From the IMG/VR virus record IMGVR_UViG_2700989510_000026: a stretch of 7,037 nucleotides of DNA, one strand, 5' to 3'. Positions 4,071 to 5,307 of this stretch are shown piece after piece (the stretch's first letter is position 1; each line of letters opens with the position of its first letter). The position numbers were made by a program, and so were the translations under genes. The notes below the pieces were generated by a model. It saw nothing but the letters and a program-made list of their open reading frames with translations. It was not told the origin of the DNA and made no database searches. This DNA is from a virus. Its lineage: Duplodnaviria; Heunggongvirae; Uroviricota; Caudoviricetes.

Positions 4071-4358
4071 TCAGAATTTATAACCAACACCCACGATGAA
4101 CCCGTCAGTGCGCCAGTCGCCACTGCCGGAGCCTTCATAAGCAATATCAATGGCCACGGATTCGGTCGGGTTAAACTGCACGCCAGCCCCCCACGCCAGA
4201 GACGTGTTGCTGTGGCGACCGTCATCACTTCCGGTCAGCACATCGTGCGTTTTCCCCTTGTTGTCAGTTACGCGGAGATAATCCCCGGAGAAAGTCGACA
4301 CACGGCTGTAAGCCACTCCCGCCATCGCATACGCGCTGAACCATTCATTCACGCGCAC
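4071..4358 (-). pseudogene. lom: Lom (Ail/OmpX-family outer membrane protein) C-terminal fragment; signal peptide and N-terminal half missing
   Basis: Translation VRVNEWFSAYAMAGVAYSRVSTFSGDYLRVTDNKGKTHDVLTGSDDGRHSNTSLAWGAGVQFNPTESVAIDIAYEGSGSGDWRTDGFIVGVGYKF corresponds to the C-terminal ~95 residues of lambda Lom (ends ...GVGYKF). The frame opens at a GTG immediately next to the J-fragment stop; an in-frame stop lies three codons upstream, so no N-terminal part is present. Confidence 0.8.
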
Positions 4359-5307
4359 AGCACTGTTTCACATCGATGATTTCGGTGTATGACGACCACA
4401 GCGTTCTGTTCTGCAGCTGGTCCGTGGTGCTGTCCGCCGTCTCCCGGACCATCCGGATGTTAAAGGGGCGGGGAGGCAGATTATCCAGAATCACCGAGGC
4501 CAGGAACTGTGAGGTGGTCTTGCCGTTAATGGTGACGTCCTTTTCCGTCACCCAGCGGCCATTACGCTGTAACTGAATCAGAATCCGGACAGAGGAAGGA
4601 TTACGGTCGCCCTTTGACGTGGTCTGCACCAGTGACTGCACCCCGAAATGTGCCGACTCGTTAGCGGCTTTTTCGATCTGGCAGGTGCCTTTGATTTTAG
4701 GCGTCGAGCCGCGAATGGATTTTGGCCACACCGACCCCTCAATACGCTTATCCCCCAGCAGGGTTGGCGAGCCCTCTTTTTCGACATCCGGCTCGAACGA
4801 GGAAAGTTCGTCATAGCAGACCACGTCCACGGATTTTTCACGGTAGTTTTTGGCGGCAGCGCCGCCCAGGCACCAGAAACCGACGCCCGATGAAAAGCGT
4901 TTCAGCGTGAGAGTATTGTCACGATGTTTACGACCCAGCCATGGGGAAAGGTCTTTCAGGCATGGCACGTTCCGAATCGTCGCCTCCACGTGAGACTTCA
5001 TAAAATCTTCAGCGGCAGAATCCGTGGACTGAAAAAGCAGACTGTTTCGGGATTTATGCTCAATAAAATACCCGCCCCCCCCCAGCAACATCTTTGTATA
5101 GCCAACACGGGCAGATTTAATCAGATTAACAGTGCGGATCTGATCATTCCCCATGCTGTTCATGATGGCGATCTGGAATGGCAGCGTTTTCCATTCGCCC
5201 TCACCATATGAAGATTCTTTCGGCAGATAATAATTTTGATCAGCCCATTCAACTGGCGTCACCGGCAATGCCCTTACACTCCCATTCCAGGTCACTGAAA
5301 TTATCAT
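4345..5307 (-). pseudogene. Chimeric remnant: large terminase subunit (lambda gpA-like) N-terminal region, residues ~15-221 of the ORF, fused in frame to an internal fragment of tail tip/host specificity protein J, residues 222-316
   Basis: ORF residues 15-221 (PVTPVEWADQNYYLPKESSYGEGEWKTLPFQIAIMNSMGNDQIRTVNLIKSARVGYTKMLL...GDKRIEGSVWPKSIRGSTPKIKGTCQIEKAANESAHF) track the lambda gpA N-terminal region including its P-loop-like KSARVGY motif. Residues 222-316 (GVQSLVQTTSKGDRNPSSVRILIQLQRNGRWVTEKDVTINGKTTSQFLASVILDNLPPRPFNIRMVRETADSTTDQLQNRTLWSSYTEIIDVKQC) track an N-terminal-proximal segment of lambda J. Junction near 4645-4647. All head and tail morphogenesis genes normally between A and J are absent. 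Confidence 0.8.

Follow-up and report, generated by a model that had tools for sequence, protein, structure and literature searches.

An open gpA-J reading frame in a decayed lambdoid prophage of Escherichia coli: a probable by-product of successive deletions

Introduction

Does a long open reading frame that runs from terminase into tail-protein sequence within a prophage remnant point to a new protein, or is it what deletions happened to leave behind? This question is raised by a window of 7,037 nucleotides (the whole stretch of DNA that was analysed). Its minus strand carries one frame in which an internal part of gpA, the large subunit of the terminase, is followed by an internal part of J, the tail tip attachment protein. 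A first-pass annotation, based on the letters of the sequence and on a list of its open reading frames, had regarded this frame as a chimera left by deletions and had considered that it could be expressed.

A lambdoid late arm reduced to stumps

The window matches contig JASO01000012.1 of E. coli O145:H25 str. 07-3858 with 99.97% identity (2 mismatches over 7036 nt). The contig that carries the copy of the window in this strain is 623 kb long and includes chromosomal flanks. First in the gene order are a PtuA/PtuB pair, hok, a DUF968 gene, RusA and the Q antiterminator. The esterase stump comes next, then the holin gene and the truncated ORF, then the chimera with lom′ and stf′ behind it, and after these the genes for an NleG protein, an NleL-like HECT ligase and a Peptidase_M85 family (NleC-like) protein, the last one lying just outside the window (L004 15096-16082). 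Past the effector genes, the contig continues with IS66 and with the chromosomal cytochrome b561 and zinT genes. On the gene map of L004, the Q gene is 3.3 kb upstream. The IS66 copy is located ~1.7 kb past the low-coordinate end of the window (L004 17006-19318), at none of the junctions described below. A search of the window with Rfam found no RNA family. The PtuA/PtuB genes (L004 1200-3195; PADLOC E=1e-165 and 1e-83) form a Septu-type anti-phage defence pair, which belongs to the same remnant, on its early/nin side, ~7 kb past the 7037 end of the window, and adjoins the hok/gef toxin gene.

The lambdoid late-gene order (Q ... S ... A ... J, lom, stf, then cargo) is preserved. The stumps form the string esterase′, holin, orf329′, gpA′, ′J′, ′lom, stf′, tfa′ and are collinear with lambda (Table 1). 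R, Rz, cos, nu1, W through I and most of A and J are absent. In total, the late region has lost ~24 kb of DNA, including cos, nu1 and all the head and tail genes. Preserved order together with the loss of essential genes is what characterizes a cryptic lambdoid prophage. The remnant is the late arm of such a prophage, cut down to stumps and followed by intact type III effector cargo. It is confined to a rare E. coli lineage, namely O145:H25 str. 07-3858 and a few relatives.

The origin of the neighbouring stumps could be specified. The truncated late-region ORF upstream of the chimera consists of the native residues 1-219 of a 329-aa ORF, followed by 7 out-of-frame codons from gpA DNA. The intact 329-aa ORF is found between the holin and the lysozyme in O55:H7 CB9615 (L008 3667-4656), and positions 5274-5935 of the window are 100% identical to O55:H7 prophages. 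The PGAP annotation of CB9615 covers only the first 112 codons of this ORF, labelled there an 'incomplete YdfR family' pseudogene; in full length, the ORF matches phrog_1085, a family of unknown function. By blastp, the lom fragment corresponds to residues 112-206 of lambda Lom, and the stf fragment to residues 1-97 of lambda orf-401, with a Pfam match to positions 1-98 of the 134 of phage_tail_N. Among the effectors, the NleL-like ligase scores 605 bits with NCBIfam NF011904, for a cutoff of 500. The type III effector cargo is probably the reason why the remnant is kept, presumably through selection on this cargo.

Table 1. Features of the window and the five deletion junctions (positions in the window)
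Feature	Position	Strand	Remarks
SopA/NleL-like HECT E3 ligase	421-2793	-	intact, 790 aa; Pfam SopA/SopA_C/Pentapeptide; pentapeptide repeats
NleG-family protein	2843-3433	-	intact, 196 aa; Pfam T3SS_NleG
3′ end of tail-fibre C-terminal gene and downstream spacer	3574-3716	-	terminator-like hairpin 3612-3626 (consensus scan)
stf 5′ fragment	3677-4012	-	side tail fibre residues 1-97, then 13 out-of-frame codons
Junction A	3717-3718		TC overlap; stf codon 98 to last ~25 codons of the tail-fibre C-terminal/assembly gene
Terminator-like hairpin and T run	4024-4043	-	immediately 3′ of lom; consensus scan only
lom 3′ fragment	4071-4358	-	Pfam Ail_Lom, profile 105-199 of 199; native start missing
Chimeric ORF	4345-5307	-	single uninterrupted frame, 320 codons, 320 aa
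Junction B	4359-4360		AG overlap; J codon 211/212 to about lom codon 104 (L002 gene)
J (tail tip attachment protein) fragment	4361-4645	-	residues 116-211, partial FNIII-A domain
Junction C	4646-4647		AA overlap; gpA F232 to J G116, in frame
gpA (terminase large subunit) fragment	4648-5273	-	99.4% identity to intact gpA in L001
Truncated late-region ORF	5249-5929	-	DUF1327/YdfR-like N-terminus (Pfam DUF1327)
Junction D	5274-5276		TTA overlap; 329-aa late ORF after residue 219 to gpA codon 23/24
Class II (P21 S-type) holin	5934-6140	-	intact, 68 aa; Pfam Phage_holin_2_1, E=3.5e-32; called in L004
SASA-family (nanS-p-like) carbohydrate esterase fragment	6433-7037	-	Pfam SASA; frameshifted stump, junction E inside
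Junction E	6484		1 nt overlap; inside the SASA esterase gene, out of frame

Make-up of the chimeric reading frame

Four pieces succeed one another in the chimera. Codons 1-11 are upstream-gene sequence read out of frame, codons 12-220 encode gpA R24-F232, codons 221-316 encode J G116-C211, and codons 317-320 with the stop are lom sequence, also out of frame. The peptide spanning the gpA/J join reads ...ANESAHFGVQSLVQTTSK. Pfam recognizes two domains in the chimera: GpA_ATPase over residues 36-218 (E=1e-34; positions 4-188 of the 247 of the profile) and, over residues 220-312, FNIII-A_GpJ (E=6e-29; positions 32-125 of 126). The single ORF, with both matches in one frame, bears out, well above chance level, the in-frame gpA-J fusion of 320 codons that had been read in the letters. 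The J-like segment is really J, since it aligns with residues 115-212 of the solved lambda J (8iyk, E=2.6e-48) and has 98.3% DNA identity to annotated gpJ genes. For the gpA part, identity to annotated terminase genes that are intact amounts to 99.4%.

From the terminase, 209 residues are retained, out of the 642 of an intact homologue. The small-subunit (Nu1)-binding segment of lambda gpA corresponds to about the first 48 residues. In the chimera, the native N-terminus is missing, gpA codons 1-23 being replaced by 11 unrelated codons. The view that the frame carries the N-terminal region of the large subunit therefore stands for residues 24-232 and fails for codons 1-23, which were removed by a junction that had been missed (D, see below). 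Within the retained part, a Walker A motif KSARVGYT (chimera residues 64-71, nt 5118-5095) and a Walker B motif with its catalytic Glu, VVCYD-E (residues 162-167, nt 4824-4807), are both present, the lambda motifs being KSARVGYS/T and VxxYD-E179, respectively (PMC6379665 Table 1). The ATPase domain is nevertheless incomplete. The gpA sequence stops at residue 232 and the Pfam match at position 188 of 247, so that the last quarter of the ATPase model is lost; the lid subdomain, at residues 327-364 of lambda TerL (PMC6379665 Table 1), is not included. Pfam gives no match to the nuclease domain PF20454 in the chimera, and both the nuclease domain and the portal-binding C-terminal end are absent. 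On the J side, the first 31 positions of the domain model are lacking, and the chimera reaches 194.6 bits with NCBIfam lambda_TipJ, against a cutoff of 1950 that sets it apart from full-length J (~1130 aa). With the start and 23 codons gone, the ATPase truncated and the J piece reduced to an incomplete domain, the expression "ATPase-domain fusion protein" used in the first-pass annotation overstates what the frame could encode. A near-full-length gpA homologue (P0016) modelled with AlphaFold2 from a 39-sequence alignment had a mean pLDDT of only 38.6.

A run of nine C is found inside the gpA fragment at positions 5075-5083 (G9 on the coding strand). It gives GGGG where the intact gpA alleles have GGVG or GVVG. 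As compared to L001, the substitution 5075 A>C extended an existing C8 run to C9. This run is likely a hotspot for slippage frameshifts.

Five deletion junctions with short overlaps

The junctions were obtained from three-way alignments in which close intact relatives stood in for the parental sequences: L001 for gpA (99.4%), L002 both for J (98.3%) and for lom-stf, L003 for the end of the tail-fibre gene, and L008 (O55:H7 CB9615) for the holin, the 329-aa ORF and the esterase (99.8-100%). As these stand-ins are close homologues and none is the actual ancestor, the lengths of overlap given in Table 1 are approximate.

From the letters alone, the gpA/J breakpoint had been placed at about 4645, the J/lom junction at 4357-4360, with lom in another frame, and the truncation of Stf at about 3715. 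Junctions C, B and A agree with these positions to within a few nucleotides, and the frame of lom at junction B is as had been said. Junctions D and E had been left out. Junction A is out of frame, with ~1.2 kb lost relative to L003. Junction B is also out of frame; ~3.1 kb are lost relative to L002, whose lom codon ~104 corresponds to lambda Lom residue 112. The loss at junction C amounts to ~14.4 kb (lambda coordinates 1407-15849) and comprises the rest of A through I plus the 5′ end of J, in line with the frame-preserving deletion of the whole head and tail block that had been proposed. Junction D, out of frame, has cost ~4.06 kb, with the lysozyme, Rz, the cos region, nu1 and gpA codons 1-23. 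At junction E, 923 nt are missing as compared to the O55:H7 CB9615 prophage and the frame is shifted. There, blastn matches positions 5274-6484 of the window to L008 4001-5211, and positions 6484-7023 to L008 6135-6674.

At each of the five junctions, the joined partners overlap by 1-3 nt. Neither an insertion sequence nor a repeat was found at any of them. Such short overlaps, free of mobile elements and repeats, are the hallmark of illegitimate recombination. Two other origins were considered and ruled out: IS-mediated deletion, as no IS sequence occurs at any junction, and homologous recombination between repeats, as the joined partners have only 1-3 nt in common.

In three other E. coli genomes (NZ_CP155555.1, NZ_CP104123.1 and NZ_CP159689.1), two pieces cover positions 3716-4479 of the window and are 1.5 kb apart in the record. 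They show a different deletion, apparently independent, between lom and the 5′ part of J. J-lom deletions would thus seem to recur.

Distribution of the join and order of the deletions

At least five independently deposited draft assemblies share the gpA/J join, with an identical sequence across the junction. A protein search likewise retrieved five distinct entries (P0001-P0005) having both domains and the same join. In DNA, junction C is identical in L004, L005, L006, L009 and L010. L004 covers all five junctions. L006 corresponds to window positions 4362-7036 (100% identity, across C, D and E), L010 to positions 4469-6085 (99.9%, across C and D) and L009, which recurs in 7 samples, to positions 4362-5272 (100%). 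GenBank labels the ORF either 'hypothetical protein' or 'phage terminase large subunit family protein, partial', and P0002, of 305 aa, is called from GTG 5262. An exact look-up of the 320-aa product returned nothing; the deposited gene calls start at GTG 5262 or end at contig ends. The exact 37-nt junction pattern had 0 matches in a contig set with one genome per species, the feature being at the level of strains.

A mis-join of gpA and J during short-read assembly of repeated prophage sequences should be envisaged at this point. The flanks of the junction are indeed multi-copy repeats, found in up to 36 places per genome, and several short contigs (L006, L009) stop exactly at junctions B and D. 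However, these short contigs end at B and D and not at C. Junction C is internal to contigs in five independent assemblies, one of which is the 623-kb contig with chromosomal flanks, and one contig with junction C recurs in the 7 samples mentioned above, the junction sequence being the same throughout. The assembly artefact, which had been named among the findings that would undo the fusion, is effectively refuted.

Junction C is thus common by descent. Its age relative to junction D can be approached with L005 (GCA_048834755.1), which shows zero mismatches to window positions 4469-5027, across junction C, and diverges past 5027 toward an intact gpA 5′ end and the 3′ end of nu1. The J/gpA deletion was most likely the first of the two and D came later, because L005 has junction C but an intact gpA 5′ end. 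As an alternative, L005 may have regained its gpA 5′ end through recombination with another resident prophage. When the window is compared to L005, mismatches begin abruptly at 5028, after 559 identical bases, and become denser toward the 5′ end of gpA. This gradient indicates that recombination between lambdoid gpA alleles happened inside gpA in one lineage, either that of the window or that of L005. The hope that relatives would order the deletions is therefore satisfied for C and D, as the most likely order, and not for A, B and E, which no complete genome spans: megablast searches of 5426 complete E. coli genomes with the ORF and with junction-spanning pieces found none that spans junction A, B, C or E.

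Did the junctions arise one after the other? The first-pass annotation had counted at least three or four independent deletions. Five junctions are now identified and C and D are separable in L005; the serial character of the whole set is only partly established. Several of them might derive from one episode of microhomology-mediated, multi-jump template switching. The clustering of five junctions within 2.8 kb, all with 1-3 nt overlaps, with small retained pieces (143-1208 nt) that are collinear and in one orientation, would fit such a single complex event. On the other hand, the presence of C without D in L005 makes at least those two events distinct, and the inserted or inverted snippets typical of template switching are not seen at the junctions. 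Moreover, serial simple deletions would equally yield collinear stumps, each one bringing the survivors closer to one another. A single complex event is accordingly considered unlikely, and successive deletions are preferred.

Start signals and possible expression

The native gpA start and its ribosome-binding context are lost. The ATG at 5307 and the first 11 codons of the chimera derive from the tail of the upstream gene, and no SD-like sequence precedes this ATG. Weak SD-like sequences are observed before GTG 5262, the start chosen in KDV30686.1, and before TTG 5268. The truncated upstream ORF stops at 5249, overlapping these two candidate starts. A consensus promoter scan found no sigma-70-like promoter upstream on the minus strand within the window, so any transcription of the chimera would be late read-through dependent on Q. 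Under such transcription, translational coupling of the chimera to the upstream ORF is conceivable, because the end of this ORF overlaps candidate starts having weak SD-like sequences.

Could the open frame then reflect selection? The first-pass annotation had remarked that open frames are retained. One junction out of five is in frame (only C), for a chance expectation of ~1.7; the single in-frame junction is about what chance predicts. The stumps are 98.3-100% identical to intact genes elsewhere, and for this reason the fragments appear young. Relative to the nearest intact genes, the gpA fragment carries 4 substitutions and the J fragment 5, which is too little divergence for stop codons to have accumulated or for dN/dS to be estimated. 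The chimera is 100% identical in several assemblies, but since these are all close relatives, this identity says nothing on selection. Selection on the open frame was ruled out on two grounds, the proportion of junctions in frame and the near identity of the fragments to intact genes. The open frames are thus no sign of selection.

It may nonetheless be imagined that the chimera has been domesticated as a decoy. Translated by coupling during Q-dependent late transcription, it would act as a dominant-negative terminase fragment, a defective ATPase subunit that disturbs terminase assembly or DNA packaging in lambdoid phages residing in the same cell or entering it. In favour of this idea, the frame is uninterrupted and has both Walker motifs intact; it may be coupled in translation to the upstream ORF, and the PtuAB (Septu) pair upstream shows that the remnant does hold defence cargo. 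Against this, half of the N-terminal Nu1-binding segment is deleted, and the ATPase fold is cut ahead of the lid subdomain. Among the PADLOC families (E<=0.001), neither the chimera nor the truncated upstream ORF has a match. The chimera occurs in a handful of near-identical genomes and in 0 of the 5426 complete E. coli genomes. Finally, one join in three is expected to be in frame, and similar chimeras are common, with a wide variety of partners. Such a decoy is highly improbable, and we infer that the chimera would be non-functional.

Discussion

The chimeric ORF arose, with a probability of about 0.9, as a side product when a lambdoid prophage decayed through successive illegitimate deletions. 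In the proposed mechanism, deletions with 1-3 nt overlaps would have stripped ~24 kb of the late region, leaving stumps between the Q antiterminator region and the intact type III effector block. One of these deletions would have placed J codon 116 directly after gpA codon 232, in frame by a 1-in-3 chance, thereby creating a long open frame. A later deletion would have taken cos, nu1 and gpA codons 1-23, so that the frame would now start at a fortuitous ATG in the tail of the upstream gene. The product, if made, would be a non-functional fragment having Walker A and B but neither the Nu1-binding N-terminus, nor the lid, the nuclease and the portal-binding end. The locus bears no sign of a new function and represents ordinary prophage decay.

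Fusions of this type are not rare. About 20 of the best 120 database homologues pair GpA_ATPase with capsid, portal, gpK, tail, fibre or J Pfam domains. In E. coli and Salmonella, the partners of the N-terminal part of gpA in other fusion ORFs include capsid (PF03864), portal (PF05136), gpK (PF00877), tail-fibre and J (PF24801) sequences. Breakpoints and partners differ from those of the chimera, and function has been shown for none of these ORFs. P0009, for instance, is an independent lambda-type fusion, gpA(1-~395)::J(10-...). Another case is aaaD/tfaD in the DLP12 prophage of E. coli K-12 MG1655, where the head and tail block has likewise been deleted and the 5′ part of gpA fused in frame. 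The fusion there is gpA(1-103)::Tfa, the annotated TfaD starting with gpA residues 61-103 and continuing with tail-fibre assembly sequence. DLP12 is a direct precedent for an in-frame gpA fusion. It differs in that nohD (nu1) and the native gpA start are kept, that only ~103 gpA codons are present and that the partner is Tfa and not J. As compared to DLP12, the present remnant has undergone additional deletions to either side and includes type III effectors as cargo.

The Sp prophages of EHEC Sakai offer another point of comparison. Their late genes contain deletions, frameshifts and IS insertions (Asadulghani et al. 2009, PMC2669165). The lambdoid prophages of this strain are multiple and similar, recombine together and have effector genes downstream of the tail-fibre genes (PMC2669165). 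Like them, the present remnant is defective in late genes yet retained with effector cargo. In contrast, the majority of the Sakai prophages have kept an intact terminase gene and most of the genes for morphogenesis, whereas cos, nu1, the lysozyme, Rz and every head and tail gene are gone here. Because cos, nu1 and the head and tail genes have been lost, the remnant would not be packageable at its own cos, even with help.

The finding is textbook prophage decay, of a kind already known, and the ORF is already in GenBank. Should the chimera prove to be an expressed packaging inhibitor, prophages would have a new way of interfering with phages; none of the present observations suggests this. The ORF is of little consequence outside annotation, where it would be better flagged as a pseudogene or chimeric remnant than as a terminase. 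The junction map provides a clean example of the shrinkage of a lambdoid prophage by short-homology deletions with its effector cargo kept, and the five junctions could act as lineage markers for the rare O145:H25-related group.
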